DNA from: an uncultured bacterium
Lineage (GTDB): Bacteria > DRYD01
Reading direction: 5' to 3'
Length of the DNA stretch: 64,000 bases
NCBI GenBank assembly: GCA_937139605.1
Contig: CAKZQG010000011.1
Coordinates: 1 to 64,000 of the forward strand
The position numbers were made by a program, and so were the translations under genes. Position 1 is the stretch's first letter, and every line of letters begins with the position of its first letter. Of the stretch, positions 10,858 through 58,912 are shown in pieces. The notes beneath the pieces are model-generated. The model worked only from the letters and a program-made list of their open reading frames with translations, was not told the origin of the DNA and did not search any database.

Positions 10858-10867
10858 ATTATATTTT

Positions 10868-12098: not shown

Positions 12099-12110
12099 AT
12101 ATTCTCCTTG

Positions 12111-13513: not shown

Positions 13514-13564
13514 CCCCTATTAAAAATTTATAAAATAAAAATTTATAAAATTAAAAATAAAAAT

Positions 13565-15628
13565 TTATAAAATTTCAGCAGTTAATAATGTTGAACTATT
13601 ACATAATAACAACATAAATCTTTCATTTATTTTTAAAATTGAATTAATATTTTCATAAATACCACTATTAAAATCTAAAATATCAATTAAATTATAACTA
13701 TAAAATAAAGAGCCGCTACTACCAACTATAAAATAAAAACTACCTATATAAATTATATCATTTGCTTCAATAAAACTTTTAGGCAAAGAAACTTTTTTAA
13801 AATCGTTATTTTCTATGTAACCGATAAATCCATTACTTAATGTAAATAATTTATTATTAACTATTCTAAAATTTTTAATAGCATAAAAAGAATTAGTAGA
13901 TATCTTTTTATCTATATCTAAATTAGGATTTAGATAAATAATTTCACCACTGCTATTGCTAAAAATCAGATTATTATTATAATTAATACCATTAACTATA
14001 CTAATACTTTTTTCTTGCAAAACTTTTAAATTACTATCGACTACATATACCTTACCATTAGTAACAATTAAATAATTATTATCAATAAATTTAATAATAT
14101 TATTAATATCACTATAACCGATTTTAAATAAAATAGAATTTTTATCGTTTAATTGTAAGGAATTAATTAAATTAGATAAATCAGAAATAACAACAATTTG
14201 CCCACTATTACCAAAAATAAATAATTTATTATCAATAAAGCTAACACCCCTGAATCTTAATGAAAAATAACTTATCTTGATTTCCTTTAGATTTAGATTA
14301 TCTTTATTAAAATCGTTTAAATCAAATAAAAATAACTTATTTTCACCTATAATAATTATTTTAGAATTATAAATAAAATAACTAAGAAAATTCGTATAAA
14401 AATTTAATTTGATTTTATCTATTTTTAAATTTAATTTTCGATTATCGATAGGTGTTTTAGTTTCTTTAACTTGGGATGTTTGTGAGTCTTGAGATGCCTC
14501 AGATGCTTGAGATACTTGTGGTACTTGAGATGTTTGTTGTATCTGAGATGTTTGTGGTGTCTGAGATGCTTGTATTGTTTGTGGAATCTGAGGTAATTGT
14601 GATACTTCAGATACTTCAGATACTTCAGATACTTTAAATGTTTGTTGCTGATTAGATGAAATTAAAGAATCTATTTTTTGTTCTTTTAAGCTCAATTCAT
14701 TTTGTATATTAGTTGTTTTTTCTTCTTCTTTTTGTAGCTCTTCTATTCTTACATTTATAGAGTTTTCTCTAGTTAATATAAATTTATCTATAGAAGATAC
14801 TAAAGTTATTATATCTTCTACTTCCTTTATATCTTTTATATTCAGATTATAATGATTTATTTTTTCTTTTAATACATCAATTTTATTTTTAATTTCTATT
14901 AGTTTAATTTTTTCTTGTTTAAATGGATCTTTATAAACAGAAATTAAGTACTTAATATTTTTATTTTTTAATTCTTGTTCAAAGTTTTTAACTTTTGATA
15001 TAACAATAGTTATTAATTCGTCTATATCTTTTTTTAATGAGTTAACTTCAGAAATAATTTCGTTTATATTCTTATTTAGTTCAGAAGTAGAAGAAGCTAT
15101 AGCAGCAGTAGATAAAGCAGCAGTAGAAGCAGTAGAAGACAAAGCAGAAGAATAAACATTATTATTTAACTCTTGTATATAATCCACTTTAAAAGTTTTA
15201 GGATTAAGAGAATATAATTTAATGAGTTCAAGTTCGCCTGAATCTAAGAATATTCCACAAGAGCAAACATCAACCCAGATATTACTATCCATTGAATAAT
15301 TAACCAGTTTCATAGGAGCGGAACATACTGGGCATAATCTTTTGCCACTTCCTTTAATGCTTTTACCTAAAGTAGATGGGAAAAACTTTTCTATATCTTT
15401 TAAAGAGATTTCCAAAGCTTTGGTTAATTCTCCTTTATCAAACCATAAGCCAGAACAATTAGGACATTGCTCTATTTTTAATATACTCCCATCAGGAAAT
15501 TTTATATTTAATACTTTAAACTCAACATTACATAATGGACATCTCCTAACTATATTTTCTCTTCCCTTTGATGGATTATCAATACTATTAATATCATTAA
15601 TAATATCTTTTATTAGATCTTTAAACAT
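13565..15628 (-). CDS. Protein with two N-terminal TFIIB-type zinc ribbons, coiled-coil, Ser/Gln/Pro-rich repetitive linker and C-terminal repeat (propeller-like) domain
   Basis: CPLCNVEF...CPNCSGLWFDKGEL and CPVCSAPM...CSCGIFLDSGELE match the C-x2-C...C-x2-C-G-x-W-x-D-x-x-EL zinc-ribbon pattern. A heptad-rich segment follows, then SEVSEVSEVSQLPQIPQTIQASQTPQTSQ..., then repeated NKLFIFGNSG / NGKVYVV beta-strand-like units. No TM segment seen. Confidence 0.5.
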   Translation of the reverse strand: MFKDLIKDIINDINSIDNPSKGRENIVRRCPLCNVEFKVLNIKFPDGSILKIEQCPNCSGLWFDKGELTKALEISLKDIEKFFPSTLGKSIKGSGKRLCPVCSAPMKLVNYSMDSNIWVDVCSCGIFLDSGELELIKLYSLNPKTFKVDYIQELNNNVYSSALSSTASTAALSTAAIASSTSELNKNINEIISEVNSLKKDIDELITIVISKVKNFEQELKNKNIKYLISVYKDPFKQEKIKLIEIKNKIDVLKEKINHYNLNIKDIKEVEDIITLVSSIDKFILTRENSINVRIEELQKEEEKTTNIQNELSLKEQKIDSLISSNQQQTFKVSEVSEVSEVSQLPQIPQTIQASQTPQTSQIQQTSQVPQVSQASEASQDSQTSQVKETKTPIDNRKLNLKIDKIKLNFYTNFLSYFIYNSKIIIIGENKLFLFDLNDFNKDNLNLKEIKISYFSLRFRGVSFIDNKLFIFGNSGQIVVISDLSNLINSLQLNDKNSILFKIGYSDINNIIKFIDNNYLIVTNGKVYVVDSNLKVLQEKSISIVNGINYNNNLIFSNSSGEIIYLNPNLDIDKKISTNSFYAIKNFRIVNNKLFTLSNGFIGYIENNDFKKVSLPKSFIEANDIIYIGSFYFIVGSSGSLFYSYNLIDILDFNSGIYENINSILKINERFMLLLCNSSTLLTAEIL
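14602..14632. repeat. Perfect tandem 9-bp repeat (ATACTTCAG x3.4) inside a longer degenerate repeat tract (14470-14640), encoding SEVSEVSEV...
   Basis: Direct reading: gatacttcagatacttcagatacttcagatac, flanked by ttgagatgcttgagatacttgtggtacttgagatg-type imperfect repeats. Confidence 0.8.
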
Positions 15629-33561: not shown

Positions 33562-35895
33562 ATGGAAGAGAAAACTCAAAGTGACATTACAATAAGAATT
33601 CAAAAAGAATCTGATTTAAAAGATTATTCTGAAAACTTTTTTATAGATTTAAAAAATATAAAAAATATAGGGAACTATGAAATAATAACGGAATTGGAAA
33701 CGCAAGGGGGACAAGCTGATATATTTCTTGTTAAAAATAAAAATCAACAACATTTTGTTTTAAAATTATATAAAAAAAATGTAGATATAAATAATTTAGC
33801 TATAAATAAAGTAATAGAATTATCTAGAATTTATCCCCAATATTTTCTTAAAATTTATGAATTAAACTATGAACCTGAATTACAAAGATATTATGAAGTT
33901 CAAGAATACATAGAATATGGAAACTTAGAAGAATTTCATAAAAAAATTCTATATAAAGATCTTAATTATTCATTAATTGATAAAATAATTTATAAAATAA
34001 ATGAAGCATTAAATATTTTACATTCCAATGGGATTATTCATAGAGATCTTAAGCCTTCAAATATTTTAATTAGAAATATAATAAAATCAAATAATAAAAT
34101 AACGGATTTAGAGCTAGTATTATCTGATTTTAATATATCTGCTTTAATAGATATAAGTATAACAAAAAAAATGACCCAAGACATAAAGGGAACAATTCTT
34201 TACTTAGCTCCTGAAAGCTTTAGTAATATTGTAAAAAAAGAATCAGATTACTGGGCTTTAGGGATAATCCTTTATGAACTTCTTACTAATTGTAATCCAT
34301 TTCAAAACATAAACGTAAATTTAATAATTTATACTTTACTAACAAAAGGAATAGAAATTCCAAATAATCTACCATTAAAGTATCAACTTTTACTAAAAGG
34401 TTTATTACAAACTAACCCAGATAAAAGATTCACTTATAATCAAGTAAAAGAAATCCTAAATGCTAAAACAGACCAAGAACTAACAAAAATCTATGAAAAA
34501 TATTTTAAAGATACACAAAATAATACTAATAATTTAAAAACAATAATAAAATACAATAATAAAGAATATTATTCTATAGAGAATTTATTAGTTGAATTTA
34601 TAAGGGATTATGAATCATTTTTAAGTGGTTTAGAATTCTTTAAAACTAAAGATTTTGAAAACTTATTATCTCAAACAGATAAAGAAATAATAAAAAAAAT
34701 ATATTCATATGGTGTTATTGATGATATTGCTTTTAGTTTATTTCTTTCTTATAAACTCAATCTTCCTTTTTCTCTTTATAATATTCAAATTAATTCCCAA
34801 AATATAACTTCTATAATTGATAAGTATTTGGATAAAATAGAGTTAAGTCCTAGTGAACATAAAATTCTAAACCTTATAAAAAACATATTTTCAAATAATT
34901 CTCAAAATTTAGAAAAATATTACAACATATATGCTAATATAACTAATAAAATAGATCCCAAGTTAGAAACTTTTTTTAATAATTTATCTAAGATAAATTT
35001 TTATAATCAAAAAAATATAAGTATAGATAATATTTTGAGATTTGTTTTAATATTGAGTTTAACTGATAAAAAAAAATATATACTTCCTAAAGGTTTAAAT
35101 AATTTTAATATATTTGAGTATAACTTATCTTATAATATTCCAGTAATAAGCTATATAATAGAAAGAAGTGAAATAGATTATTTAAATAGGATTTACATTT
35201 TACCTTATGAAGTTAAAAATTTAGCAAATGCTTCTATAAGAGATTACATTCAGATAGTATCTTGGCTAAAGAATAACAAAGATGATTTAATATTAAAAAA
35301 AGATATAACTATTTCAAGAGATATATCAATAAAGGAATATGAAGTATTAAAGAAAAAGGTCTTACAACAAAAGATAAAAACTCCAACTTCCTCACAAAGA
35401 GTTATTAATATAAATCCCATAGAATTTAATAAACTAGTTATAATAAATAGATTGTTAATGGAGAATAATTTAAGAGATAATGAGTTAAATTATTATTTAA
35501 ATAATCCTCAAAATTTAAACTGGCAGATATATGATAGAATATATAAAAGGAACATAAAAAAGTTAGTAGATGTAATATATTCAAAGAATAGGCGGTTTAG
35601 AATTCCTTCTAGTTTAATTGTTTTATTTTTTTTATCTATATTTTCTTGTTTATTTTTGGGGATAGGTTTTTTTGTATGTAGAAATCCTTTCACTTTTTTA
35701 TATATGTTTGGTTGGAATTATGAATATTTATATTCATGTTTATTTGGGGGAATATTTTTAGTATTTTTAATTCCTTTAATAGTTTCCCCTTTTATAATAA
35801 GTGATTTATTATTTTATAGAAATATAAGTAAAGAAAAAATACAGATAGAACTAGAGAATAGAATTGATATGGAAGCTAAAAGGAATTTAAGATAA
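33562..35895 (+). CDS. Hanks-type Ser/Thr protein kinase with long C-terminal extension ending in transmembrane helices
   Basis: Gly-rich loop region, VLKLYKK (Lys), HRDLKPSNIL catalytic loop, DFNIS (DFG variant), APE (LAPESF). Then ~400 aa of unknown domain and 3-4 TM helices (LIVLFFLSIFSCLFLGIGFFVC...). Confidence 0.8.
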   Translation: MEEKTQSDITIRIQKESDLKDYSENFFIDLKNIKNIGNYEIITELETQGGQADIFLVKNKNQQHFVLKLYKKNVDINNLAINKVIELSRIYPQYFLKIYELNYEPELQRYYEVQEYIEYGNLEEFHKKILYKDLNYSLIDKIIYKINEALNILHSNGIIHRDLKPSNILIRNIIKSNNKITDLELVLSDFNISALIDISITKKMTQDIKGTILYLAPESFSNIVKKESDYWALGIILYELLTNCNPFQNINVNLIIYTLLTKGIEIPNNLPLKYQLLLKGLLQTNPDKRFTYNQVKEILNAKTDQELTKIYEKYFKDTQNNTNNLKTIIKYNNKEYYSIENLLVEFIRDYESFLSGLEFFKTKDFENLLSQTDKEIIKKIYSYGVIDDIAFSLFLSYKLNLPFSLYNIQINSQNITSIIDKYLDKIELSPSEHKILNLIKNIFSNNSQNLEKYYNIYANITNKIDPKLETFFNNLSKINFYNQKNISIDNILRFVLILSLTDKKKYILPKGLNNFNIFEYNLSYNIPVISYIIERSEIDYLNRIYILPYEVKNLANASIRDYIQIVSWLKNNKDDLILKKDITISRDISIKEYEVLKKKVLQQKIKTPTSSQRVININPIEFNKLVIINRLLMENNLRDNELNYYLNNPQNLNWQIYDRIYKRNIKKLVDVIYSKNRRFRIPSSLIVLFFLSIFSCLFLGIGFFVCRNPFTFLYMFGWNYEYLYSCLFGGIFLVFLIPLIVSPFIISDLLFYRNISKEKIQIELENRIDMEAKRNLR

Positions 35896-42554: not shown

Positions 42555-43460
42555 TTAATCCGAATTATCTAAGTCTTCATCGTTTTGGTTATATAATTCT
42601 TTATGATTTTTATAGTCTTGAGAATAAAAATGTATTATTAACATTCCCCATAAACTTAAAAATAAGAAAATGATATTAGATAGATCTCTTAATTTCTTTT
42701 GTTTTTCATATGTTTTAGCTAATCCCCAGGTTATTGAAGCTGTCCATAATCCATTTGAAAGATGATATGCTACCGATAATGTAAATAGTTTATATATTAT
42801 TAATCCTATGGGTCTTAGTGGTGGTTTAAACCATATATTAACTTTTTCAAAAGTAAGATCTCTTTTAGCTGGAATATTTAGAGCATCTCTTATAAACTTA
42901 GGTAGATATTCATTAAACCTTACTGTTCTTAAATGAAACAATAAAGTAAATAAAATAATATAAGCTGTTATTCTTTGAAGTATAAACCTATAATTAGTTT
43001 CATATTTTAGGTTATAATTTATTTTGCTTGTTTTTAATAAAATTAAACCAATAATTATATGGATAGTTAGGGGTAGGTATATCCCAAATATTTCTATTAG
43101 TGGTAGCAAAGGGAATTTATGCATTTTTTTAGTAAATTTATTAAGGGTTTTTGGATCTTTTGCTAAAGAATTATTAATATAATGAAATATTAAAAAACCT
43201 CCTATAAATATTGTTCCAGTTAATGAGTGGATTCTTTTAAAAACTACATATGGAATAGAATCTATGATGTTAGTTAATTTATTTAATACAATTTTGCCAT
43301 TACCAACAAAATTGTTTAAGCTACTATCTACCTTTTGAATATAATTAAAGTTATTAGTATCATCGTTTGATTTTATTTTTTCTTTTTTATATTTTTTAAG
43401 TTTTTTATATAAGATAAAACCTGTTAATGTACTTGCACCTAAAATAACTGGTATTAACAT
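42555..43460 (-). CDS. Hypothetical integral membrane protein (301 aa)
   Basis: 6-7 hydrophobic helices, acidic C-terminal tail. No motif recognised. Confidence 0.35.
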   Translation of the reverse strand: MLIPVILGASTLTGFILYKKLKKYKKEKIKSNDDTNNFNYIQKVDSSLNNFVGNGKIVLNKLTNIIDSIPYVVFKRIHSLTGTIFIGGFLIFHYINNSLAKDPKTLNKFTKKMHKFPLLPLIEIFGIYLPLTIHIIIGLILLKTSKINYNLKYETNYRFILQRITAYIILFTLLFHLRTVRFNEYLPKFIRDALNIPAKRDLTFEKVNIWFKPPLRPIGLIIYKLFTLSVAYHLSNGLWTASITWGLAKTYEKQKKLRDLSNIIFLFLSLWGMLIIHFYSQDYKNHKELYNQNDEDLDNSD

Positions 43461-43664
43461 ATATTTTTTTTCTCTCCTTCTTTTTTAAGTATCTTATATC
43501 TTTTATTTTTTTATTATACCTTTATTTTTATTATCCTTTAGAAAAAAAAATAAAAAAAATAAAAGAGTTCCTATAATAGTTTATTAATAACTACTTATCA
43601 ATAAGAATTAAAAGCTTTTAACTCTAAAAAAACTCTCATTTATATTTAAAATTATTTTCTTTAT

Positions 43665-43871
43665 TTATTTGTTTTTTTTTATCATGTCGGATTTCTGTCT
43701 GATTAATGGCGGATTAGTTATCCTACCCTTTTCCTTGACAAAAATTACTGCTTTAATTTGCCTTTCATTTATCCCTATTAATAATTTTCCTCCATTAGTA
43801 TTAGCTGCTATAACCTTAAGATATTCATCTTTCCATTTTTCTTTAAACTCAATGTTTTGATTTTCTTTCAT
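43665..43871 (-). pseudogene. Remnant of an AlbA_2 / Schlafen-like putative DNA-binding-domain gene (N-terminal ~65 aa only)
   Basis: ENQNIEFKEKWKDEYLKVIAANTNGGKLLIGINE matches the start of the AlbA_2 domain (E..n.EFK..w......k.i.AFaNt.GG.l.iGv.d). Full-length proteins are 400+ aa; here the ORF ends after 68 aa. Confidence 0.4.
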
Positions 43872-43972
43872 AGAATTTTTAAACCATAACCTTTTTAAAT
43901 TTTAATGTTATTTTAATTATTTTAAATTAAAATTGTTATAAGGGAATTAAATTGCTTAATAATTTATTTTAT

Positions 43973-46900
43973 TCACTCTTTAAGCCCATATAATTCTAAT
44001 ACTAATTCATCTAATTCTTTTTGGATATCATCTAATTTTTTCTGTGCTTCTTGATTAGTTAATACCCCGTTAAATTTCTGCTTTTGGATAGCTATAGCTC
44101 TATCACATAAGCTCTCAAATACCCTTAACTGCTCTAATGTTGGAATAATAATCGGTAACTGACGAGCATCATTAATCTGGAAATGAACAGTTGTATTTAC
44201 AAAAGCATTCAAATAAGTAGAGATAAAACCAGAATTTAATATACTCACAATAAATTTAGCACTTACCATACTTGTATTAGGAAATAGAGACATACTAAGC
44301 ACATCATGTATACTTTTTTCCTTTATTCTACAGCGCACATCATAGCTAACATCTGTCCAGCAAAATCCTTCACGAAAGTAAAATTGCGGATTACGAACAA
44401 CAGGCATTCCTTCCCCCTTTTTACCCGAATTTTCTTTCAAAAATTTCACATTTTCTCTGCTCCAGTCAATATAGTAAGGAGTAGGAGCATACCATCTATT
44501 TCCATCCTTGTCTCCTTTATCATATGGCACAAAGGTTTTATCCCCTCTAATTCCGTTAAGTTTTTCATCATCAGTAAGATAATCTACATCAACTATTTCT
44601 TCATAACTTACAATGCGATATATCCATCCTTGCCCAAAAACATCTCGCCCATATTTTTCTTTAAGCTCATCAAAAAGCTGGCGTATCTCTTTTTCTTTTA
44701 AATTATTTAAATACGCCTGTGCATCAGCTTTGCTTTTTATATTTTCCTTTTTACAAAATTGTTCTACAAGCAAAAGCTTTTCAGGCCGTTCATTACGCAC
44801 CTTATCCGCCCACTTAGTTCCCTCTAAAACTCCTATATACTTACCATTATTAGCTGTTGCTAAACCCTGCCCTCCCTCTGTAATCAAACCAAGCAATGTA
44901 ATATCACCAGGTTTTAAAGATTTACGATAAATTTCAAGCTCTTTTTTATATTTTTCAATATTTTTACTTGTAGAAATTTTATCCCACCATTTGATAAGTA
45001 ATTCATTTACTTTTTTAGCAAGCTTTTGGTAAATTTTTTTATTAAAATCAGTAGGTATAAAAATAACTTTATTAGGAACATTGGTATAATCATTTTGCTG
45101 TATAGTGTATTTTTCTGGTTGTGTGATGTTATTTTTACCATCTAAAAAGGTTATCTGATGCCCAGGTTCTGGTTGTGATTTTTTTACAATAATTACACTG
45201 GTATCTACCATAGCGCTCTCAAAAGGATTAGCTGTATCAAAAATTTGAAGTATTGTGTTTTCTAATAAAAGATCCCGAAGATTCTTTTTAGTTTGAATAG
45301 TCCAATAAGTTTTAGAAGTAATATAAGTAAGTATCCCATTATTTTTTAATATCTGAAATCCTTTAAAAAAGAAATGATTATAAAGATCATCAGCAAAACC
45401 ATAGTATTTTTTTAATGATATTTTTAATTCTTCATTAACCCCTTTTGTAGAAACATATGGCGGATTAGAAATTACGATATCAAACCCACCCTTCTCTCTA
45501 AATACCTTTGGAAAAAATAATTTAAAATCAAAATTAATCTTATATCCAAAATTTTCCTGTGATTTTTCCAAGCGCCATTTTATTTTCTCATCTATTTTTT
45601 GCTTTAATTCCAATTTTTTTAAAGGATTAGTTTCAGAAAAATATTTATCCATTAATTCTTGAATCTCTTTTCCAATAGGAGAGTTCCAATTTTCAGGAAA
45701 TCCTAAAAGAGAATCACCACAAACAACCTTATAATCCAGATTCGGAAGGGGTTTTATATTATGAAAATCATCTTCATCAACAATCATAGAAAGCCAAAAC
45801 CTTAACTTACATATTTCAACAGCACCCGCATCTATATCAACCCCATAAAGAGAATTCTCTATACAATGTCGCTTCAAATCATAAGAATTAATCTCCTTAT
45901 TAAGATAAATAGCAAGAAGCTGCCTTAATTTTACAATCTGATGCATCATTCCAATAGGAAAAGCCCCTGACCCAACAGCAGGATCACAAATAGCTATATC
46001 TGAAAGAATCTTATCAATTTCTTTAGCATTTTCAATAATACTTTGTGAAATCTTATATTCATACTTTGTTTGCTTTTGTTCTCCAATGCTAATTTTTTCG
46101 TTCTTTTTAATAGCAATCCTTTCATTCTCTAAAATAAAATCCACATGTCTTACAAATTCCTCAATCTCTTTTTTATTTACTTTATCTTTAATTTCTGTTT
46201 CAAGGTAATTTATTAAACTTTCCTGGCACATATAATGTACAATTTCTGGGGGAGTATAATAAACCCCATATTCTTTATTAAACTTAGCTTCTTCTCCCTT
46301 TTTGCCAGAATTTAAGACCTTTACATATTGATCAAAATTATCTTGCCTTATTGCATTTAATTTTTCATAGATTTTTCCAAGTAATTCCGGATCAAGTGCT
46401 ACCTCTTTTTCAAGCGGTTCCTCTTCATTCACAGTAAAATTATACCTATCAAAAACATCAAGGATACCATCTCCAACATCCCCTTCCTTAGTTTTATTCC
46501 TATTAGAAAAAAGTTCATTAGGTAAAAGCACATCAACATTTACCCAATCAAAACCATTAGGCGGATCAAAAAGCCCACCATTTAAAAACGGAATCTTACA
46601 ATTAAATCTATTATAATAATGCTCATTATCACTTCTATCTATTCTTAATGCCTCATAAAATAAAGGCTCAAGGATATCATTATAAAAATTCTTATAATCT
46701 ACAAACTCTTTGTTAAATAATTTCCTAATAAAGTCTTTTGGACCTGTTGTCCAAGGTTTCCCTTTTTCAACTCCAAACCAACCCTTCTTCTGAAGGAAAT
46801 ATAAAAATGTAATCTGTCCCAGCAACTTCTTAGCAAAATCAACAGTACTAATATTTTTTATTTTAAACTCTTTACTCACCTTTAAATCCCTTTGAACAAG

Positions 46901-47563
46901 TTTATCAAGTTCAAGTTTAGTTTTTATAAATAAATCTCTATATTTTTCAAAGAATTCTTTTGTAACTACCTCAACATCAAAAGCTTTTTCTAAATCACTT
47001 AATGTAGGCTTAAAATAATCATTTTCAAGCAAAGGTAAGAATCTACTTTGTGCAGTATGACTTTTCTCATTTTTTCCAACAAGGAATGACCATCTTTTTG
47101 CAGGCGTTAATTCCTTTTCGACTTTAATTTTTCCTAAAGGATTTTCTTGAAAAGTATAATCCAATTTAACAAGAGAAAACCGCCAATCTTCATCATTAGG
47201 TGCTACAAAAGCTACAAGCGCGGCATCTTTAATAGTATTTGTTCCAAGTTTTCCACTTAAATATTCAGCAACAAAGTTTCTTTGAGCAGACCGAGCATGA
47301 TATAAAGAAAACTCCCTCCTTAGCTTTACAACCAAAATATCTATCTTCTTACCACCTTCATCTACATATCTTCCAATTCTTTCCCAAGAGCCAATAAACT
47401 CAAGGTATTTTTCAGTTATCCCTTGGATCCCAATCCTTGGCTCAAGTGCTTTAGTTATGTCATATTTTTTTAATAAATTAGCTATAAATTTAACAAAATT
47501 ATCTTTATTAAAAGGTTCTTCAAAAGTTAGCTTTATCAACCCTATTGCTTGCCCTCTGTTCAT
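43973..47563 (-). CDS. Large gamma-class N6-adenine DNA methyltransferase with N-terminal domain and C-terminal specificity (TRD-like) domain (PglX / type IIG-IIL-like)
   Basis: 1196 aa. Motif I CDPAVGSGAFPIG precedes motif IV ISNPPYVS (gamma-class order). ~500 aa N-terminal and ~450 aa C-terminal domains. Locally higher GC than flanks. Confidence 0.8.
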   Translation of the reverse strand: MNRGQAIGLIKLTFEEPFNKDNFVKFIANLLKKYDITKALEPRIGIQGITEKYLEFIGSWERIGRYVDEGGKKIDILVVKLRREFSLYHARSAQRNFVAEYLSGKLGTNTIKDAALVAFVAPNDEDWRFSLVKLDYTFQENPLGKIKVEKELTPAKRWSFLVGKNEKSHTAQSRFLPLLENDYFKPTLSDLEKAFDVEVVTKEFFEKYRDLFIKTKLELDKLVQRDLKVSKEFKIKNISTVDFAKKLLGQITFLYFLQKKGWFGVEKGKPWTTGPKDFIRKLFNKEFVDYKNFYNDILEPLFYEALRIDRSDNEHYYNRFNCKIPFLNGGLFDPPNGFDWVNVDVLLPNELFSNRNKTKEGDVGDGILDVFDRYNFTVNEEEPLEKEVALDPELLGKIYEKLNAIRQDNFDQYVKVLNSGKKGEEAKFNKEYGVYYTPPEIVHYMCQESLINYLETEIKDKVNKKEIEEFVRHVDFILENERIAIKKNEKISIGEQKQTKYEYKISQSIIENAKEIDKILSDIAICDPAVGSGAFPIGMMHQIVKLRQLLAIYLNKEINSYDLKRHCIENSLYGVDIDAGAVEICKLRFWLSMIVDEDDFHNIKPLPNLDYKVVCGDSLLGFPENWNSPIGKEIQELMDKYFSETNPLKKLELKQKIDEKIKWRLEKSQENFGYKINFDFKLFFPKVFREKGGFDIVISNPPYVSTKGVNEELKISLKKYYGFADDLYNHFFFKGFQILKNNGILTYITSKTYWTIQTKKNLRDLLLENTILQIFDTANPFESAMVDTSVIIVKKSQPEPGHQITFLDGKNNITQPEKYTIQQNDYTNVPNKVIFIPTDFNKKIYQKLAKKVNELLIKWWDKISTSKNIEKYKKELEIYRKSLKPGDITLLGLITEGGQGLATANNGKYIGVLEGTKWADKVRNERPEKLLLVEQFCKKENIKSKADAQAYLNNLKEKEIRQLFDELKEKYGRDVFGQGWIYRIVSYEEIVDVDYLTDDEKLNGIRGDKTFVPYDKGDKDGNRWYAPTPYYIDWSRENVKFLKENSGKKGEGMPVVRNPQFYFREGFCWTDVSYDVRCRIKEKSIHDVLSMSLFPNTSMVSAKFIVSILNSGFISTYLNAFVNTTVHFQINDARQLPIIIPTLEQLRVFESLCDRAIAIQKQKFNGVLTNQEAQKKLDDIQKELDELVLELYGLKE

Positions 47564-47594
47564 TTTAACTCACTTCCTTAAATATATTATTTTC

Positions 47595-48185
47595 TTAATA
47601 TTTATCACACTCTAAATAAAGAGATAAAATAACTTCTCTTTTCTCTGATGCCATATTTGATATTATATCTGAATTTATTATATCTGAGTTTATAGGAGAA
47701 TTTTCTGAATAATAGTTTTTCAAAAAAGCAGGAGAGATTTCCCTTTGTAAAACTTTAATAACACTTAATGGTTTTAGAATATCTTTTCCTAAGTTATTTA
47801 ATGATTTGAGAACATTTTTAACTGTTTTTTTGGGTAAAGCCATTTCTTCTAAACGGTTTATTACTTTTTCAAGATATTTTTGTTGATCTTCATTTAGCTG
47901 GTTAGCTCCTTTTTGTATTACTTTTAAAATTCTTAAAAGCTCATTATAACTACTTTTTCCTCCTTGTTTTCCAGATTCAACTATTTCATAAGTAGTTGAA
48001 TTATAAAAAGCAGTTTTATTTTTATCAAGTAATTCATAATAACTCTCAATATTTATGGTTGCTTTGGTTTCATTAGGTAAAGATTCAAAAATCTTTACAG
48101 CAGTTAAAAAATCAAGTTCAATTGTTTTTTCTTTATTTGATAAAAAGAATTTTAATAGTTTTCCTTTTCTAAAAAATGTTAGCAA
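47595..48185 (-). CDS. Hypothetical protein (196 aa) between helicase-nuclease and methyltransferase genes
   Basis: 31-nt gap to the MTase start and same strand as both neighbours, probably co-transcribed. No domain recognised. Confidence 0.4.
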   Translation of the reverse strand: MLTFFRKGKLLKFFLSNKEKTIELDFLTAVKIFESLPNETKATINIESYYELLDKNKTAFYNSTTYEIVESGKQGGKSSYNELLRILKVIQKGANQLNEDQQKYLEKVINRLEEMALPKKTVKNVLKSLNNLGKDILKPLSVIKVLQREISPAFLKNYYSENSPINSDIINSDIISNMASEKREVILSLYLECDKY

Positions 48186-48284
48186 TGAATTACAAGGATT
48201 AAAAGAATTAAAATGTTGTTTAAATAATTGATTTATAAGTGATGTTGTAGGGAGTATTTTAGCGGAGCGAGCTTTCTTTGGAAT

Positions 48285-50903
48285 CTACTTTATTTTTTCA
48301 AATAGTTCTGGATTGTTATTACGAATATCCTGGATAATTTTAAAATATTTTAACTCACTTTCTTCTTGCTCTTGTTCTTCTTGGGTAAGAATTTTTTTTG
48401 AAAGAAGTTTATCAAAAAGTTCATAAGAATGAACCGGTTCGCCTTCCATTAAAATAGCAGAATCACCACCAAGCAACGTTAAAAACGCTTCTATTTTAGA
48501 ACGTGCGATATTTGTAAGATCAATTTCATTATCAGCTTGCTTAGCAGGAAAAAAATTGAATATATAAATTTTATCAAATTTAGTATCTATACGATTAACC
48601 CTTCCTATTCTTTGCATCAATTTTGTAGGATTCCAAGGGATATCATAATTTATCACAATATTTGATCTATGAAGATTAACACCTTCTGAAAGGACTTCTG
48701 TTGAAACCAGTATTTTATAATTATCTTTTTTATTTTTGGCTCTTGCATCAAAGTTTTCTATTACTTTATCACGAGCATTCTCTAAGGAACCCCCATGAAA
48801 AAGTAAAGCTATTTCTCCAAAGTCTTTATTTATATTTTTTACTAAATACTCTGCGGTTTCTTTTGATTCTGTAAAAATAATTATTTTTTCACTATTTTTC
48901 AAAACTGAGTGTTCTTTTAAATTTGTCAAAAGAGTTTCAAGTTTTGGATCCCTGTTAATTTCATCCCACATTGATTTTATTTTTTTCAAAATCTCCAGAT
49001 CATTGTTTAAATCTTTTTCAAAATCTTTTCTAAAGTCATTACTTTGATATTTTTCAGCTTTCCCTTGTTCTATTAATTTTTGGATTTCTTCATCATCCCC
49101 TTGCTCTAATAATTCAAAAATTTTATTTATATGCTTCCTACTAACATAAACATTTCCCCGTTGGTATTCTTTAATAAACATTTCATAGGATTTAATAAAT
49201 CTATCGATACTATTTTTAAAAGCATAAAAGCTACTTTCAAGGCGCTTTACAAGTAAAATTTTCATAAATTTTCCCATATTTATCTGTGATTGCTTTTCAA
49301 GAGCTGTTATCTCTTTAGTAAGATATAATAACGGAGTATAACGAGAATATTTAAAATCCTTAGTTATCATTTCAATAGTTTCCATAAAAATCTGGTCTTC
49401 TTTATCATTAAGTTGGTAGTAAAATGGTTTTGGATCTTGAATATCCGGAAACTTTATATTATTTTTTTGTAAGTCCTGGGAAAAATAATTTTGAATTTCA
49501 GTTCTTGTGCGCCTAACCATAATATATTTTAAAATCTTATCCCTGATTTCTTTTGCAATCCTTTTATTCATTTCGATGTATTTATCGTAATCTTTATGTC
49601 TATCTATTTTTTTTAATTTTTCGTCAAGGCTAACAATAAATCTTTCAATATCTGGAATACCTGGTATAGTACTTTTTTTAGGGTTCTGGAATAGCTTAAC
49701 CTGAGCGAGTATATCTCTTGGTGAATTATTATAAGGAGTAGCGGAAACCAATATAACTTTTTTCCCACGACAAATTTCAGAGATATCTTCATAACTAATG
49801 GTTTCTTCATTTCTAAAACGATGAGATTCATCGATAATTATATTCGCATACTCTCTATTTTGAACTTCTTCTTTAGCTTTATCAAGCTCACCAATAGATA
49901 TAAATTTAGCAGGGATATTAAAATCATAAAACACATTAATCCAAGAGCCTGGATTATTTCTATTAAGAAGAGCAGGGGGAGCAATAACAAGTGTCCTACC
50001 TTCAAGCTGCTTAACAAGCATAGCTGTAATATAAGTCTTTCCAAGGCCAACTACATCAGAAATAAAAACCCCACCATGCTCCTGTAATATTTTCTTTGCA
50101 TTTAAAACCGCTTGCTCCTGATATTCCAATACTTTAAAATTTTCCGGCAAGTATTCAAAAAAAACTTTATCATCTAATGATAACTCATCCTTAAAATATT
50201 CATATAAAAATTTTAGATAAATTTCATAAGGAGTAATGTTTTGATTAAGATATGTTCTTTCATTTAAAGTTTGGACATATTTTTCACTAACATCAACCGA
50301 ATTTTCCCATAATTGTTCAAATTTTTCTTTAGCAAATTCATAATCATTTCTATTTTTTAGCTCAACATTAAATTCTAAGTTATCTTCAAGCCCAGATTGA
50401 GTGAAATTACTTGATCCAGTAATAACTCTTCCTATATCTCTATCACCTTCTTTAAAGGTTATAATATATAGTTTTGCGTGAATCTTTTGATATGGATAAA
50501 CTCTTATCTGAAGTTTTCCTTGTTTTATCCATTCTATAAACTTTCTTACTCCTTCTTCAACATCTAATTTATCTTCAGAATCCGACATCTCCTCTTCTAT
50601 TTCTTTTTCAATAATTTCCTTTGCTTGATAATGAGAAAACATTAATTTATATACTTCTCTATTTATACCAATCCCAACAAGGATTCTTATTCTTTCGGCT
50701 GTTTCAAGAGAATTATACAACTTATAAAATCCACTTATGTAAAAATAAGCGACTAAACAATCAAAAAATCTACAATCCTTTATTAGTTGTTTAAATCTAT
50801 CTTTAAGTGTTTTATTTTGCTCATTTATTATAAATGTTAAATCCAAGTGATTCTTAAGGATTTCTTTATTTATATTTTTATCTTCTTTTTTAAAAAAACT
50901 CAT
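48285..50903 (-). CDS. PLD-family nuclease domain fused to SNF2-family (SF2) helicase
   Basis: N-terminal HKD motif IHAKLYIITFKEGDRDIGRVITGSSNFTQSG (H-x-K-x4-D-x6-GSxN). Helicase motif I DVVGLGKT, motif II IIDESHRFRN, motif VI QRIGRVNRI. 872 aa. Confidence 0.8.
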   Translation of the reverse strand: MSFFKKEDKNINKEILKNHLDLTFIINEQNKTLKDRFKQLIKDCRFFDCLVAYFYISGFYKLYNSLETAERIRILVGIGINREVYKLMFSHYQAKEIIEKEIEEEMSDSEDKLDVEEGVRKFIEWIKQGKLQIRVYPYQKIHAKLYIITFKEGDRDIGRVITGSSNFTQSGLEDNLEFNVELKNRNDYEFAKEKFEQLWENSVDVSEKYVQTLNERTYLNQNITPYEIYLKFLYEYFKDELSLDDKVFFEYLPENFKVLEYQEQAVLNAKKILQEHGGVFISDVVGLGKTYITAMLVKQLEGRTLVIAPPALLNRNNPGSWINVFYDFNIPAKFISIGELDKAKEEVQNREYANIIIDESHRFRNEETISYEDISEICRGKKVILVSATPYNNSPRDILAQVKLFQNPKKSTIPGIPDIERFIVSLDEKLKKIDRHKDYDKYIEMNKRIAKEIRDKILKYIMVRRTRTEIQNYFSQDLQKNNIKFPDIQDPKPFYYQLNDKEDQIFMETIEMITKDFKYSRYTPLLYLTKEITALEKQSQINMGKFMKILLVKRLESSFYAFKNSIDRFIKSYEMFIKEYQRGNVYVSRKHINKIFELLEQGDDEEIQKLIEQGKAEKYQSNDFRKDFEKDLNNDLEILKKIKSMWDEINRDPKLETLLTNLKEHSVLKNSEKIIIFTESKETAEYLVKNINKDFGEIALLFHGGSLENARDKVIENFDARAKNKKDNYKILVSTEVLSEGVNLHRSNIVINYDIPWNPTKLMQRIGRVNRIDTKFDKIYIFNFFPAKQADNEIDLTNIARSKIEAFLTLLGGDSAILMEGEPVHSYELFDKLLSKKILTQEEQEQEESELKYFKIIQDIRNNNPELFEKIK

Positions 50904-50992
50904 CTTCTTTAATTTTATAATTAAATTACTATTTTAATTTTTCATTTTCTTTTTATTTTCCCCTTTTTAAATTTAATAAAAAGTTCCATATA

Positions 50993-51045
50993 TTTAACAT
51001 TTTTTTAAAAATAATTTAACATCTTGTTAATATTTTTAATTTAAG
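50993..51045 (+). repeat. 53-bp direct repeat, copy 1 (promoter-like; identical to copy 2 at 51782)
   Basis: TTTAACATttttttaaaaataaTTTAACATcttgttaatatttttaatttaag. Contains candidate -35 TTGTTA and a -10-like TATATA/TATAAA just downstream. Lies 30 nt before the DUF2283 gene. Confidence 0.8.
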
Positions 51046-51074
51046 GGTATATAAAGAAGCGTAGTAAATAATTT

Positions 51075-51368
51075 ATGGGAAACAAAGTTAATGCCAAAAA
51101 AAATAATAAAGAAAATAAAAGCAAAGATAACAAGATAAATTATTTACATTACTTATTAAGAAATACGAGAGTATGGATTGATCCAGAAACTGACATTTTT
51201 TATTTATCATTAAAAAAAGGCCCATCATTTGATTCGCAAGAAATAAATAATAACATTATAATAGAGTTTGACAATGAAAATAAAATAATAGGATTAGAAA
51301 TTAGGAACCTATCTAAAATAGATTTTAATAAAATTATTGAATACACAAAAAAAGTACTTACAGATTAA
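51075..51368 (+). CDS. DUF2283-family small protein (putative antitoxin-like partner)
   Basis: WIDPETDIFYLSLKKGPSFDSQEINNNIIIEFDNENKIIGLEI matches the DUF2283 pattern (YD.E.D.LYi.l......e....i.D.d..G.ivGIEI). Confidence 0.55.
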   Translation: MGNKVNAKKNNKENKSKDNKINYLHYLLRNTRVWIDPETDIFYLSLKKGPSFDSQEINNNIIIEFDNENKIIGLEIRNLSKIDFNKIIEYTKKVLTD

Positions 51369-51406
51369 TATAAACTGCTAAAAACCAAAGCACATAAACC
51401 TAATAA

Positions 51407-51772
51407 ATGAAGGTAGAGAATATTGTTTTATTTTTTACAAGGAATTCATACCTTTTTATTTTTTCAAAGAAATATTTATATTTAAAAGAAATTATATTCA
51501 CAAGACACTGTGAATTACGAATAAAAGAAAGACAATTAGACAAAAATAAAATCATAAAAATATTCTATAAATTTAATTTTTCACTATATGATATAGATAA
51601 CAAAAACTTTATTATAATTTCCAACAAAACAATTGATAATTACCACTTTATAATAATTTTCAATATTAAAAACAATACAGCAAAAATTATAACTATTTAT
51701 CCATGTAAAGATATAAAAAATGAGTTAAAAAAAAAGCTGGGAAAAAGATGGTTTTACTATTTTAATTTTTAA
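51407..51772 (+). CDS. DUF4258-family small protein (putative toxin-like partner)
   Basis: IIFTRHCELRIKERQLDKNKIIKIF ... KIITIYPC matches DUF4258 (fs.HA.eRm.eRgi....v..vl ... viTvy). 38-nt gap after the DUF2283 gene. Confidence 0.55.
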   Translation: MKVENIVLFFTRNSYLFIFSKKYLYLKEIIFTRHCELRIKERQLDKNKIIKIFYKFNFSLYDIDNKNFIIISNKTIDNYHFIIIFNIKNNTAKIITIYPCKDIKNELKKKLGKRWFYYFNF

Positions 51773-56353: not shown

Positions 56354-58912
56354 ATGATTACTAAAACTTCTAAAATTACTATCTCTAAAATATATAATCT
56401 AAACTCTATTGATAACATAATTGATGTTTTCATTACCGATTATTTCTTATTTATTATATCCAAAGACTTAATTATTCACATAATTAATAGAATAAATAAT
56501 TATGTTTTTTCTTTTAAAGTTATCATTTTTGAAAAGGAAGACAATATACTATTTGAATTTCTTAAAATAATTGATATAAAAAAGCTAAACAAAGACACAT
56601 TCGAAGCATCTTTACTAATTAAAAATATCCTAAAAGGAATATATTTCTTAAATATTTACATAATAACTAAGGATAATGAATTCAAAATATTACTAAATGA
56701 TTCTTATTATTTAGATTCCCGATTTATAAATTTCATAAATCATAATAGCTCACTAAATATTAATGATTCTCTTAACGATATATTAATTTTAGTAGATAAC
56801 GGAATATACAACATAAATTCAAAGTCTTTTTTTTATAAAATAGAAGATATTTTAAAATCTACTTATATAGATATAAAAGATATAATTTATTCATTTTTTA
56901 TTAATCAGAATCTATTTTTTGTTGATAAAAAAGGATTTATATTTATCTTCGAAATTGATAAAGATAAGGAATTAAAATTTATAAATTCATTTTTCTTAGA
57001 TAGTTTTTATCATAAAAATCTTAAAAATATTAAACATTTTTATATCTCAGATAATATTGTTATTTTTGTTGATAATTTAATATATGCTATATCCAATTTA
57101 GATAATATATTAGACAATATAAATGAAATTAAAATAAAAAAATACTCTACTTGGGAGTTATTTAAAGATTTTTATTTATTAACAAAAAATTCTAATGAGA
57201 TTTTTAAGGATATTATATTTTATAATAATAATTATTATTTAGTTTTTGAAAATTATTTAGTGCTTTTAAAAGTGGAAGCTAATAATTTTAAATTTACAAA
57301 GTTAAAAAATTTTGAATGGGAAAAAGAAAATAATTTAATTAAATTAAAAATTATAAATAATCAAGAACTTTGGGTTTTCTATAACCAAAAAATATGGGTT
57401 TTCCAAAATATCCTAGAAAACTCCTTATATAAAGAATTAACTTTATCATTTGAATCTAATCAAGAATTACTATCAATTAAAGATAAATATAACAAAAATG
57501 ATTTAGAAAATACTTTAAAAGAAAAAGAAATCTTAAAGGATAAAGATATATTTGAAATACTAGATTCTAATAATGATAATATTTTGTATAATAATTTTAA
57601 AGTAGTTTCTATAAAAAAATATAATGAATTTTATTTAATTTTTTTAAATGTTCCATTTTTTGGTATATTGGATAACAAAAATGTTTTCTTTTATCCGTTT
57701 TTATTTGATAATTTTACCGAAAATTATAATTATAAAAAAATTAATATTATTTCTATTTTAGATAATTTGTTATTTTTTAAATTAGAAGATAATTATTATT
57801 TTGGAGAATTAGAATTTACTTTTGAACCTTATGTAAAAACTACTGTTAAAAATATTAATAAAATTAATACATTAGTAAACGAAGATAAAATATTAAGTAA
57901 TCCTATTAGATTCTTAAACAATAATGTCTTATTTTCATATCAAAATGAATTATTTATTTTGAATTTAGGTAAAGAATCTAAAGACTATACTCTAAAAAAA
58001 TTTGACCTGAGAAACGTTTCTTTATCAAATATAAATTATTTTAATGATAACTTTGTTTATTCATTTTATATTAAAGACAGTAATATTATTTTAAAAATAT
58101 ATGAACTAGATACTATAAATTTCAAAATAAACATACTTAAAGAATTTATTTTGGAAAATATATCTGATTTCTACAAAAATTTACTGATTAATAGCATTTT
58201 ATTAGATTTAAAAATTATAGATAATAATAAACTTTATCTTTCTATTTTAAAAAATAATCAAATCTATGATTTAGAAATTACTAATAATATTCAATTTAAA
58301 TTATTGAAAAATTTTAAATTGAATGTAGAAAATATTTTAAACGTTTTCAAAATAAATGAAACTATCTTCTTTATTGATTATGATAAAATATATTATTTTA
58401 ATATATCATTAAATTCTTTAAACTTCATTAAATTATTTGAAACACTTAATAAAGTTAATCTGCAAAATAATTTAGATGTTTTTATATTTAATAATCTAAT
58501 TGTCATAGGAAAAATAGAAGATTTCTCAAAATGGGAAAAAATAGTATTCACTTATACCAATGAAAATATATTAGATATATTATTTTATAAAGATAAATTG
58601 CTAATAATATTAGAAAATTCTATAGCTACTGATATACCTAATAAAATTTTAGATATAGAAAAAAATAATTTTATCGAGTTATTAAAACTAGATAATGTCA
58701 TTTACTTAAAGAAATATTTTAAAAATAAGCTTTTAAAAGAAAATAAATTATTTTTATTAGATGATATTGGAGATTTCTGGATAGTTGATATTCAAAATAA
58801 AGATTTAATTAAATCCTATTTGGGTTTTTTAAATGAAGGAGAATTTTATTTAATTGATAATAATATATATATAATAACTAAAGAAGGGTATTCTATAAAA
58901 ATAGAAGTATAA
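56354..58912 (+). CDS. Hypothetical Asn/Ile/Lys/Phe-rich repetitive protein (852 aa)
   Basis: Begins 18 nt after tRNA-Pro. Many short beta-strand-like repeats (YYF, IFF, NNN). No domain recognised. Confidence 0.35.
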   Translation: MITKTSKITISKIYNLNSIDNIIDVFITDYFLFIISKDLIIHIINRINNYVFSFKVIIFEKEDNILFEFLKIIDIKKLNKDTFEASLLIKNILKGIYFLNIYIITKDNEFKILLNDSYYLDSRFINFINHNSSLNINDSLNDILILVDNGIYNINSKSFFYKIEDILKSTYIDIKDIIYSFFINQNLFFVDKKGFIFIFEIDKDKELKFINSFFLDSFYHKNLKNIKHFYISDNIVIFVDNLIYAISNLDNILDNINEIKIKKYSTWELFKDFYLLTKNSNEIFKDIIFYNNNYYLVFENYLVLLKVEANNFKFTKLKNFEWEKENNLIKLKIINNQELWVFYNQKIWVFQNILENSLYKELTLSFESNQELLSIKDKYNKNDLENTLKEKEILKDKDIFEILDSNNDNILYNNFKVVSIKKYNEFYLIFLNVPFFGILDNKNVFFYPFLFDNFTENYNYKKINIISILDNLLFFKLEDNYYFGELEFTFEPYVKTTVKNINKINTLVNEDKILSNPIRFLNNNVLFSYQNELFILNLGKESKDYTLKKFDLRNVSLSNINYFNDNFVYSFYIKDSNIILKIYELDTINFKINILKEFILENISDFYKNLLINSILLDLKIIDNNKLYLSILKNNQIYDLEITNNIQFKLLKNFKLNVENILNVFKINETIFFIDYDKIYYFNISLNSLNFIKLFETLNKVNLQNNLDVFIFNNLIVIGKIEDFSKWEKIVFTYTNENILDILFYKDKLLIILENSIATDIPNKILDIEKNNFIELLKLDNVIYLKKYFKNKLLKENKLFLLDDIGDFWIVDIQNKDLIKSYLGFLNEGEFYLIDNNIYIITKEGYSIKIEV

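Follow-up and report, generated by a model that had tools for sequence, protein, structure and literature searches.

Does the minus-strand gene cluster at positions 43665-50903 of the window (the whole stretch of DNA that was analysed, 64,000 nucleotides) encode a restriction system, and if so, is it one of a described kind? The sequence-only reading of this DNA had seen three genes in it, encoding a PLD nuclease fused to an SNF2 helicase, a 196-aa protein and a 1196-aa adenine methyltransferase (MTase). It had proposed an ATP-dependent, methylation-guarded restriction module that cannot be assigned to a described system.

Gene structure and domains of the locus

The three minus-strand ORFs were found where they had been placed, the 872-aa ORF at 48285-50903 and the 196-aa ORF at 47595-48185, separated by 99 nt, followed after 31 nt by the 1196-aa ORF. 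The count of three genes, in contrast, did not hold. The 196-aa ORF shares the reading frame of the 872-aa ORF, the 99-nt gap being 33 codons long, and the only internal stop in 47595..50903 is at codon 873. The TTG at which the 196-aa ORF was taken to start is simply the first possible start codon past this TAG, and inspection of the upstream sequence by eye showed no Shine-Dalgarno-like stretch ahead of it. The locus has two near-identical relatives (98.6% and 99.7% nucleotide identity). At the site of the stop, L001 and L018 carry CGG (Arg) in an intact gene, which differs from TAG by two transitions within one codon. The homologous protein P0001 (98% identity) is uninterrupted over 1102 aa, as is the gene in L018, and helicase homologs of 1046-1114 aa read straight through the junction. 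A reassignment of TAG in an alternative genetic code was ruled out, as TAG terminates other long ORFs of the window (TAA 28, TAG 3, TGA 3, i.e. the standard code) and close relatives have CGG. A separate third component was likewise rejected, since the small ORF shares the frame of the helicase and the homologs run on without a break. Judged from reading frames and relatives, the locus is thus two genes, a methylase gene and a gene for a motor-driven nuclease cut by a premature stop, and what was taken for an unknown 196-aa protein is the C-terminal domain (CTD) that the stop has cut off from the helicase-nuclease. The features of the interrupted gene are:

47595..50903, minus strand: PLD nuclease, SNF2 helicase and CTD in one gene of 1102 codons, frame continuous, interrupted by an in-frame TAG
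50307..50627, minus strand: PLD (HKD) nuclease domain, aa 93-199 of the 872-aa ORF (Pfam PLDc_2, E 6.7e-12)
50463-50480, minus strand: single HKD motif, H142-A-K144
50400-50417, minus strand: GSSN, G163-S-S-N166
48588..50138, minus strand: SNF2/SF2 helicase core (Pfam SNF2-rel_dom and ResIII at aa 256-497, Helicase_C at aa 662-772, E 8.6e-24)
50034-50048, minus strand: helicase motif I, GLGKT, aa 286
49821-49832, minus strand: helicase motif II, DESH, aa 358
48591-48614, minus strand: helicase motif VI, QRIGRVNR, aa 764
48285..48287, minus strand: premature stop TAG (Arg873, CGG in relatives; comparison with the codons of L001 and L018)
47598..48284, minus strand: family-specific CTD, aa 874-1102, now severed from the helicase (the earlier "196-aa protein")

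Pfam matches and motif positions confirm the fusion of an HKD-type PLD nuclease to a full SNF2/SF2 core. Each polypeptide has only one HxK...GSxN signature, in which HAK and GSSN hardly vary among 30 homologs. The CTD is kept in nearly all full-length helicase homologs, and no similarity to an SRA domain or an SRA/DUF3427-type reader was detected in it.

The second gene is intact, with the motif order of the gamma class (DPAVGSGAF before NPPY) as previously reported for it:

43973..47563, minus strand: Eco57I-family gamma-class N6-adenine MTase with N-terminal domain (NTD) and C-terminal specificity region, 1196-aa ORF (Pfam Eco57I at aa 570-777, E 1.1e-33)
46919..47563, minus strand: MTase NTD, aa 1-215, a domain specific to MTases that are linked to a helicase; no nuclease is demonstrable in it
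45959-45985, minus strand: MTase motif I, DPAVGSGAF, aa 527
45455-45466, minus strand: MTase motif NPPY, aa 700
44144..44363, minus strand: recombination tract in the specificity region, aa ~1068-1140 (comparison with L018)

TaqI_C matches weakly at aa 1030-1138, and no nuclease domain was detectable in the 1196-aa chain. Across 30 helicase homologs and 31 MTase homologs the catalytic motifs are near-invariant. In MTase motif I, the allele of GCA_026417355.1 has Trp531 where the window and L001 have Gly, and the L001 sequence stops short of the MTase 3' end. The earlier domain calls (PLD, SNF2, adenine methylase) were correct. The recombination tract stands out by 98 nucleotide differences from L018 in its 220-nt segment, against 5 in the remainder of the gene. 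Programmed inversion (a shufflon) of the specificity region, for which there is a precedent (PMC9881135), was considered and rejected: a search of 43400-51100 turned up no inverted repeats of significance, and the variant segment occurs only once in the window.

Conservation of the gene pair and its surroundings

The helicase-nuclease gene lies directly upstream of an Eco57I-family MTase/specificity gene in many bacterial phyla and in one archaeal MAG. Of the 13 loci with enough downstream DNA, 12 have an MTase homolog 3' of the helicase on the same strand; the helicase of L006 has no MTase downstream, which counts against a two-gene restriction-modification (R-M) reading. Conversely, all six MTase look-ups, including the isolate Thermoflavifilum thermophilum (L028) and a Nitrososphaerota MAG, showed a PLD-SNF2 gene upstream on the same strand, directly adjacent in five. 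A single AlbA_2 gene separates the two genes in L019, and in L020 and L022 the helicase stop overlaps the MTase start. The arrangement also extends to distant homologs: in Parabacteroides, the gene after a 30%-identical helicase encodes an MTase with 25% identity, alignable from residue 12 onwards. In a plasmid collection, the MTase NTD had three matches, and each lies next to a PLD-SNF2 gene or what remains of one. A phage collection yielded only distant SNF2 matches. The window pair itself consists of a CTD-bearing helicase-nuclease directly upstream of an NTD-bearing MTase, 31 nt apart, as the family is defined.

Protein identity between phyla is 70-75%, and the divergence of helicase and MTase is roughly parallel across loci. 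No third or fourth conserved gene was found beside the pair. Among the solved structures of the PDB, searched by sequence and by profile, the only matches were generic ones to Helicase_C and to the PglX methylase core. The pair is a strongly conserved operon across phyla, and horizontal transfer has carried it as a unit into many phyla of bacteria and into at least one archaeon, represented by a MAG.

The flanking genes lie outside the module:

43665..43871, minus strand: AlbA_2/HTH gene remnant (Pfam SLFN_AlbA_2, E 1.1e-5)
51075..51772, plus strand: DUF2283/DUF4258-like gene pair on the other flank (Pfam)

Both flanks had been named correctly, although of the pair only DUF2283 is a clear match (E 4.5e-15), DUF4258 being weak (E 1.1e-3, under the Pfam cutoff). 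Both of these ORFs are present in L018, and L001 shows the DUF2283 gene. The AlbA_2 gene of L018 is a 118-aa version with an internal deletion, whereas full-length AlbA_2+HATPase_c_4 genes adjoin the helicase-MTase pair in L019 and L027. As the DUF2283/DUF4258-like pair and the AlbA_2 remnant are the sole neighbours of this kind, the case for a "defence island" is weak. The locus is GC-richer than its surroundings (0.26-0.33 versus 0.16-0.24), as had been noted, but the flg genes also reach ~0.30. Its proposed position between lspA-proximal genes and the flgF operon agrees with a syntenic relative, where the locus is likewise flanked by lspA, recR and flgF/G genes. Three related strains have it at the identical chromosomal site, however, and it is therefore no recent insertion private to this strain. 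A promoter/terminator scan gave fewer promoter-like sites than shuffled sequences and was uninformative in this AT-rich DNA.

Relation to described systems

By membership tests, the locus falls outside DISARM, BREX, MANTIS, Hma, Type ISP, SauUSI and CglI/NgoAVII. Class 1 DISARM has the same three domain families (SNF2 in DrmD, PLD in DrmC, an Eco57I-like adenine methylase in DrmMI), but here PLD and SNF2 are fused and neither DrmA (a YprA-type helicase) nor DrmB (DUF1998) is present. The DISARM equivalogs (NCBIfam NF038317, NF038319) score far below their cutoffs, DrmD at 154 bits versus 610 and DrmC at 23 versus 133. PglZ and BrxC of BREX types 1-6, together with BrxL or type-specific genes, are absent from the tested window ORFs and the related loci. 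The PglX equivalog NF033452 reaches 156 bits versus a cutoff of 500, other PglX models score lower, and the name "BREX-1 PglX" that NCBI gives to P0121 thus has no backing from this score. The earlier statement that DrmA/DrmB, PglZ, BrxC and BrxL are missing was upheld by PADLOC, which matched none of them in ten other window ORFs (344-1067 aa, including all of at least 687 aa), and by their absence from the seven gene-annotated related loci (L018-L022, L028 and L029).

MANTIS (formerly Gao_RL; BREX-related type 2) consists of MtsA-MtsB-MtsC-MtsD, in which the DUF499 AAA+ ATPase MtsA and the small DUF protein MtsB load the methylase and are required for methylation, and in which MtsD, similar to SauUSI, has a single PLD active site for each dimer; in vitro reconstitution of the nuclease step is still lacking (bioRxiv 10.64898/2026.09.23.753747). 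Common to MANTIS and the present pair are a methylase that sets specificity and an SF2 helicase-like HKD/PLD nuclease, the dimeric MtsD, which is predicted to act after recognition of an unmodified site. MtsA and MtsB are missing here, however, and the helicase carries its own CTD. The helicase scores 147 bits against NF042964 (cutoff 1100), a model of a PLD-like anti-phage protein that is not established as the MtsD family. Among PADLOC's models, PLD_Helicase gives 83 bits and the best helicase model is C3a139, which was derived in a survey of accessory genes of type III CRISPR systems.

Type ISP enzymes (LlaGI, LlaBIII) combine the same activities, i.e. nuclease, dsDNA translocase motor, gamma N6-adenine methylase and target recognition domain (TRD), and by analogy the logic of an asymmetric site, ATP-driven translocation and cleavage by two enzyme molecules is likely shared. 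They are single polypeptides with an Mrr-like PD-(Q/E)xK nuclease, whereas here there are two proteins and a PLD/HKD nuclease. In Hma (HmaA-HmaB-HmaC), the SNF2 helicase has a C-terminal PD-(D/E)xK nuclease and works with a methylase and an ATPase, while the PLD domain here is N-terminal and HmaC is absent; the HmaA model gives 86 bits, over the helicase part only. CglI/NgoAVII systems, similar in that they restrict DNA in an ATP-dependent manner with a PLD-family nuclease plus an SF2 helicase, keep these as separate proteins; their nuclease (PLD plus a B3-like DNA-binding domain) reads the site and their methylase is a C5-cytosine enzyme, in contrast to the fused PLD-SNF2 protein and the N6-adenine methylase found here.

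Still, to call the locus unassignable was too strong. The PADLOC model REase_MTase_IIG (PDLC03596) scores 934 bits on the MTase, and a 2023 paper tabulates "Cj0031-like Type II RM + upstream PLD/SNF CDS", noting the pairing in passing (PMC9881135). Full-text literature searches found neither an experimental study of the helicase-MTase pair nor experimental evidence of restriction or methylation by any family member. In the output of annotation tools the methylase goes under "Type IIG RM", at times even under "BREX PglX", and its partner under plain "helicase-related protein"; labelled in this way, the pair is invisible as a system.

A proposed two-gene restriction-modification module and its probable state in this strain

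The reading that we favour, at a probability of about 0.65, is that the locus encodes an ATP-dependent R-M module of two proteins, the PLD-helicase serving for restriction and the MTase for modification and recognition, and that the helicase subunit is probably inactive here. The proposed restriction module gains from a conserved operon outside the named systems, but loses its third component, and this copy is probably restriction-defective. Gene 1, restored to 1102 codons, would encode the restriction subunit with its N-terminal single-HKD PLD nuclease, SNF2-type SF2 motor and family-specific CTD. Gene 2 would encode the modification and recognition subunit, made up of the family-specific NTD, a helical region, the gamma-class N6-adenine MTase and the C-terminal specificity region. 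The MTase/TRD would recognise a short, probably asymmetric site and mark self DNA by methylating an adenine in it. At unmodified sites, the MTase may load or license the PLD-SNF2 protein, which would move along DNA powered by ATP. Since one HKD motif is half an active site, we infer that cleavage requires the pairing of two PLD domains, by analogy with the dimeric PLD-helicase nucleases SauUSI and MANTIS MtsD. The MTase NTD and the helicase CTD are candidate docking surfaces.

A self-contained Type IIG enzyme, with the PLD-SNF2 protein as an accessory or back-up effector, is an unlikely alternative. The 1196-aa protein joins a gamma N6-adenine methylase and a TRD in one chain and shares a homologous methylase-TRD core and helical region (Eco57I, MmeI_Mtase) with Type IIG/IIL enzymes such as Cj0031, MmeI, DrdV and Eco57I. 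The solitary enzyme Cj0031 restricts phage on its own, and the PLD/SNF-linked Type II RM genes have been called homologous to it (PMC9881135). Those enzymes, however, have their own PD-(D/E)xK nuclease and need no helicase, whereas a helicase-nuclease gene was found here in every MTase context examined.

We consider it quite improbable that the stop is tolerated or bypassed, be it by readthrough, by an 872-aa protein that works without its CTD or as an assembly error, so that the module is still active in the strain. The truncated product does retain the PLD domain and all helicase motifs, and breaks recur near this point: the metagenomic copy L023, unrelated to this one, is interrupted only 4 codons away by a duplication of 5 nt, beside a G AAA AAA TAA context that would permit a -1 slip into the CTD frame, and another copy ends early, at aa 890. 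Against this stand the conservation of the CTD, the use of TAG as a normal stop in the window, the lack of a visible ribosome-binding site ahead of the CTD fragment and the decay of the adjoining AlbA_2 gene.

An autonomous Type IV nuclease-helicase of the SauUSI kind (modification-dependent, or otherwise independent), travelling with an unrelated methylase, is very unlikely. The order of PLD nuclease, SF2 ATPase and C-terminal domain is that of the S. aureus enzyme SauUSI, a dimer with ATP-dependent cleavage, and the helicase of L006 stands without an adjacent MTase. SauUSI, though, has no partner methylase and recognises 5mC through a C-terminal domain of the SRA type. No such reader was detected in the CTD here, the linkage to the methylase is tight, often with overlapping stop and start codons, the two proteins diverge roughly in parallel, and a nuclease that requires methylation would, with a methylase encoded next to it, turn on the cell's own DNA. 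That the locus is a fragment of DISARM, BREX or MANTIS with the remaining genes elsewhere in the genome is scarcely tenable, as the partial profile matches that suggest it (DrmD, PglX, NF042964 and DrmMI, the last with 99 bits) all lie far under curated cutoffs (610, 500, 1100), DUF1998/YprA, PglZ, BrxC, BrxL and DUF499 are absent from the seven annotated related loci and the ten other window ORFs, and the two genes move together as a unit across phyla.

For the two-protein R-M module, the CGG to TAG nonsense codon means that the restriction subunit of this strain would lack its CTD and is probably disabled. We infer this loss of function rather than observe it, because the 872-aa product retains the nuclease and the whole motor. 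With its restriction gene broken, this genome probably retains the methylase alone, which would persist as an intact orphan beside a decaying, restriction-defective copy.

More tentatively, and at slightly less than even odds, the pair may represent a distinct minimal class of ATP-dependent R-M systems, in which a methylase-specificity protein of the MmeI/Eco57I kind directly licenses a PLD motor nuclease similar to SauUSI and MtsD, the two docking via MTase NTD and helicase CTD without a loader ATPase. If so, the independent breaks that cluster where the helicase meets the CTD would point to the CTD as the coupling element, the part that cells lose to disarm restriction. The pair would then be the simplest experimental model for the switching-on of PLD-helicase effectors that are guided by a methylase in systems like MANTIS and DISARM. 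Should it work as proposed, it would be a two-protein analogue of the four-protein MANTIS and a tractable model for methylase-licensed PLD-helicase restriction.

Gene structure and the premature stop

The sequence-only reading described a three-gene defence locus with GC content above its surroundings. An ORF scan of the window recovered its three minus-strand ORFs at exactly the same coordinates, with gaps of 99 and 31 nt. Pfam matches and motifs agreed with its domain calls (PLD nuclease, SNF2 helicase, N6-adenine methylase), and both flanking features that it named were found by Pfam, the DUF4258 match being weak and below the Pfam cutoff.

Features of the locus (ORFs from the ORF scan, domains and flanks from Pfam)
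48285-50903, minus strand: 872-aa ORF with PLDc_2 (aa 93-199), SNF2/ResIII (aa 256-497) and Helicase_C (aa 662-772)
47595-48185, minus strand: 196-aa ORF
43973-47563, minus strand: 1196-aa ORF with an Eco57I methylase domain
43665-43871, minus strand: AlbA_2 remnant, 68 aa
51075-51772, divergent from the helicase gene: DUF2283/DUF4258-like pair

The count of three genes was not upheld: there are two, one of them broken. The 872-aa and 196-aa ORFs share one frame, interrupted by one TAG (48285-48287) and separated by a further 33 sense codons. Homologs of the 872-aa ORF are 1046-1114 aa long (query coverage 98-100%), and the nearest of them, the 1102-aa P0001 (98% identity), reads ...ELFEKIK-R-IPKKARSAK... 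and on through the entire “196-aa protein”. In two syntenic loci, L001 (a Logan contig, 98.6% nucleotide identity) and L018 (NCBI GCA_026417355.1, 99.7%), the TAG codon is CGG (Arg) and the 1102-codon gene is unbroken; the two codons differ by two transitions. Long ORFs elsewhere in the window follow the standard code, ending in TAA (28), TAG (3) or TGA (3). The shared frame, the continuous homologs, the CGG in both relatives and the standard code thus identify the 196-aa ORF as the C-terminal domain (CTD, aa 874-1102) of the helicase-nuclease, severed by a nonsense mutation. The TTG that opens this ORF is simply the first possible start codon past the TAG, and no ribosome-binding site was seen ahead of the fragment in the window sequence inspected. 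As helicase homologs run on through the CTD, the small protein proposed as a separate component does not exist.

The 872-aa ORF contains helicase motifs I, II (DESH) and VI (QRIGRVNR) and a single HKD motif (H142-A-K144 ... G163-S-S-N166). Conservation of the helicase family is unusually high: members from different phyla share 70-75% identity, and HAK, GSSN, GLGKT, DE(A/S)H and QR.GR.NR are near-invariant among the homologs. The CTD is confined to this family and C-terminal in all full-length proteins (234 representatives at 50% identity). The TAG removes the CTD and leaves nuclease and motor in place; judging from the sequence, the window most likely holds a copy with a disabled restriction subunit and an intact methylase.

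Conserved pairing of helicase and methylase

A scan for the helicase (one genome per species) gave 16 loci from many phyla, 13 of which extend more than 1 kb past the helicase gene. In 12 of these 13, a methylase homolog follows the helicase on the same strand, 10-640 nt away. Identities of these methylases were 35-74%, and 98.7% in the near-identical L001. One larger gap that was inspected, in L009, contains a small nucleotidyltransferase gene. In the exception, L006, the helicase gene begins 150 nt away from the contig end and is followed by polysaccharide genes. Conversely, all six methylase homologs looked up (47-96% identity), including those of a Calditrichota chromosome, cultured Thermoflavifilum thermophilum and a Nitrososphaerota archaeon MAG, have a PLD-SNF2 gene of 1066-1102 aa upstream on the same strand. 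It adjoins the methylase directly in five; in L019 one AlbA_2 gene intervenes. Helicase stop and methylase start overlap in L020 and L022.

The gene order also holds for a far more divergent pair on a Parabacteroides distasonis plasmid (helicase 30%, methylase 25% identical, the methylase alignment starting at residue 12). A search of a plasmid collection with the methylase N-terminal domain (NTD, aa 1-215) returned three records, each with an adjoining PLD-SNF2 gene, one a decayed remnant. This remnant of the module, L030 (3027-4700) on Sulfitobacter dubius plasmid pDSM109990_e, has been annotated as three separate hypothetical proteins; in it, helicase aa 21-116 are fused to aa 774-1067, directly followed by methylase NTD aa 1-139. 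A variant on Thermus oshimai pTHEOS02 (L025, 3578-10363) and Allomeiothermus silvanus pMESIL02 (L026, 2876-10417) has three genes. They encode an Eco57I-family methylase that is shorter (744-787 aa), a PLD-SNF2 protein (1123-1125 aa) and, between the two, a hypothetical protein of 327-412 aa without a Pfam family, which may carry specificity.

The methylase, possible decay in relatives, and surroundings

In the 1196-aa ORF, DPAVGSGAF (aa 527) precedes NPPY (aa 700), and there is a weak match to a TaqI_C-like specificity domain. The NTD is highly conserved among helicase-linked methylases. Since it matches no Pfam family even at E<=10 and shows no conserved D...(D/E)xK triad, no nuclease is demonstrable in this protein; it may contain a degenerate or atypical one. 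Between the window and L018, the methylase genes differ at 103 nucleotides, 98 of them within a sharp-edged 220-nt tract (44144-44363; aa ~1068-1140, inside the TaqI_C-like region) and 5 outside. The tract resembles a patch of recombination within the specificity region; the window has no further copy of the alternative version.

The L018 helicase gene is intact. At codon 531 of its methylase (10001-13597), GGG has become TGG, which turns Gly to Trp in SAM-binding motif I (DPAVWSGAF); the change may reflect inactivation by another, separate route or a consensus error in the MAG. In L023, an unrelated metagenomic copy (8560-8760), a 5-nt duplication (TTTGA) breaks the helicase gene 4 codons from the window's TAG position, in a G AAA AAA TAA context where a -1 slip would restore the CTD frame. 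The Thermodesulfovibrio copy L024 (6001-8673) has a helicase truncated at aa 890 and no methylase beside it. Breaks at the helicase/CTD junction in three copies may mark a preferred place of disarming or be a coincidence. Together, the specificity tract, the L018 motif I change and the L023 and L024 breaks are consistent with a module that is decaying or under conflict in this lineage.

An AlbA_2 + HATPase_c_4 (+HTH) gene recurs beside the pair in several loci: between the two genes in L019 (5388-6794, Calditrichota genome) and just upstream in L027 (5430-6974, Parabacteroides plasmid). The window and L018 retain only remnants, just downstream; that of L018 (13699-14055) is internally deleted at 118 aa, and that of the window is more truncated. 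The gene may serve the pair in an accessory or regulatory role. The DUF2283/DUF4258-like ORFs, which we take to be a toxin-antitoxin-type pair, both have counterparts at this position in L018; L001 has the DUF2283 gene as well. GC content is 0.26-0.33 in the locus versus 0.16-0.24 for most surroundings (window 24%), in line with the sequence-only reading. Elsewhere in the window, ORFs 5845-9048 (1067 aa), 16970-19510 (846 aa) and 56354-58912 (852 aa) had no Pfam, NCBIfam or PADLOC match at the thresholds used. A 777-aa Ser/Thr protein kinase (33562-35895) matched PADLOC models mad6 (142 bits), PD-T4-6 and the MkoA N-terminus; as the partner genes of those systems were not seen, the hits most likely reflect a kinase domain in general.

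Relation to known systems and proposed mechanism

In ten other window ORFs of 344-1067 aa and in seven related loci with annotated genes, no DrmA/DrmB was found, against DISARM (DrmD model 154 bits, cutoff 610), and no PglZ/BrxC, against BREX (PglX model 156 bits, cutoff 500). MANTIS (formerly Gao_RL) and other BREX-related systems were rejected because neither a DUF499 ATPase nor MtsB is present. Unlike this locus, Hma has a C-terminal PD-(D/E)xK nuclease and Type ISP consists of one polypeptide with an Mrr nuclease; compared with SauUSI, the locus lacks an SRA reader and has a methylase partner. PADLOC would call the methylase “RM type IIG” (934 bits), and its best model for the helicase is C3a139 “HKD+Snf2”, which stems from a survey of genes accessory to type III CRISPR systems. 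The pairing is already on record: PMC9881135 lists Cj0031-like Type II RM genes with adjacent PLD and SNF CDS. The searchable literature yielded neither an experimental nor a dedicated comparative study of the pair. The original interpretation is partly supported: the pair is a real, conserved restriction-modification-like module outside the named multi-gene systems, but it lacks a third protein, had been noticed before, and is probably defective in this copy.

We class the module as ATP-dependent restriction-modification with a PLD-helicase effector. The methylase would recognise a site through its TRD and methylate adenine, and at unmodified sites it would recruit or license the PLD-SNF2 protein, which would use ATP on DNA. 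The family-specific NTD and CTD are obvious candidates for the coupling surfaces. One HKD motif is half a PLD active site, as established for Nuc and BfiI, so that cleavage would require a pair of nuclease domains to come together, whether in a standing dimer or by collision. This logic is common to Type ISP and Type III enzymes and the MANTIS working model; MtsD, the PLD-helicase nuclease of MANTIS, was shown to form one PLD site per dimer (bioRxiv 10.64898/2026.09.23.753747). The pair would gain in interest should it turn out to be a minimal working model of how methylases license PLD-helicase nucleases.
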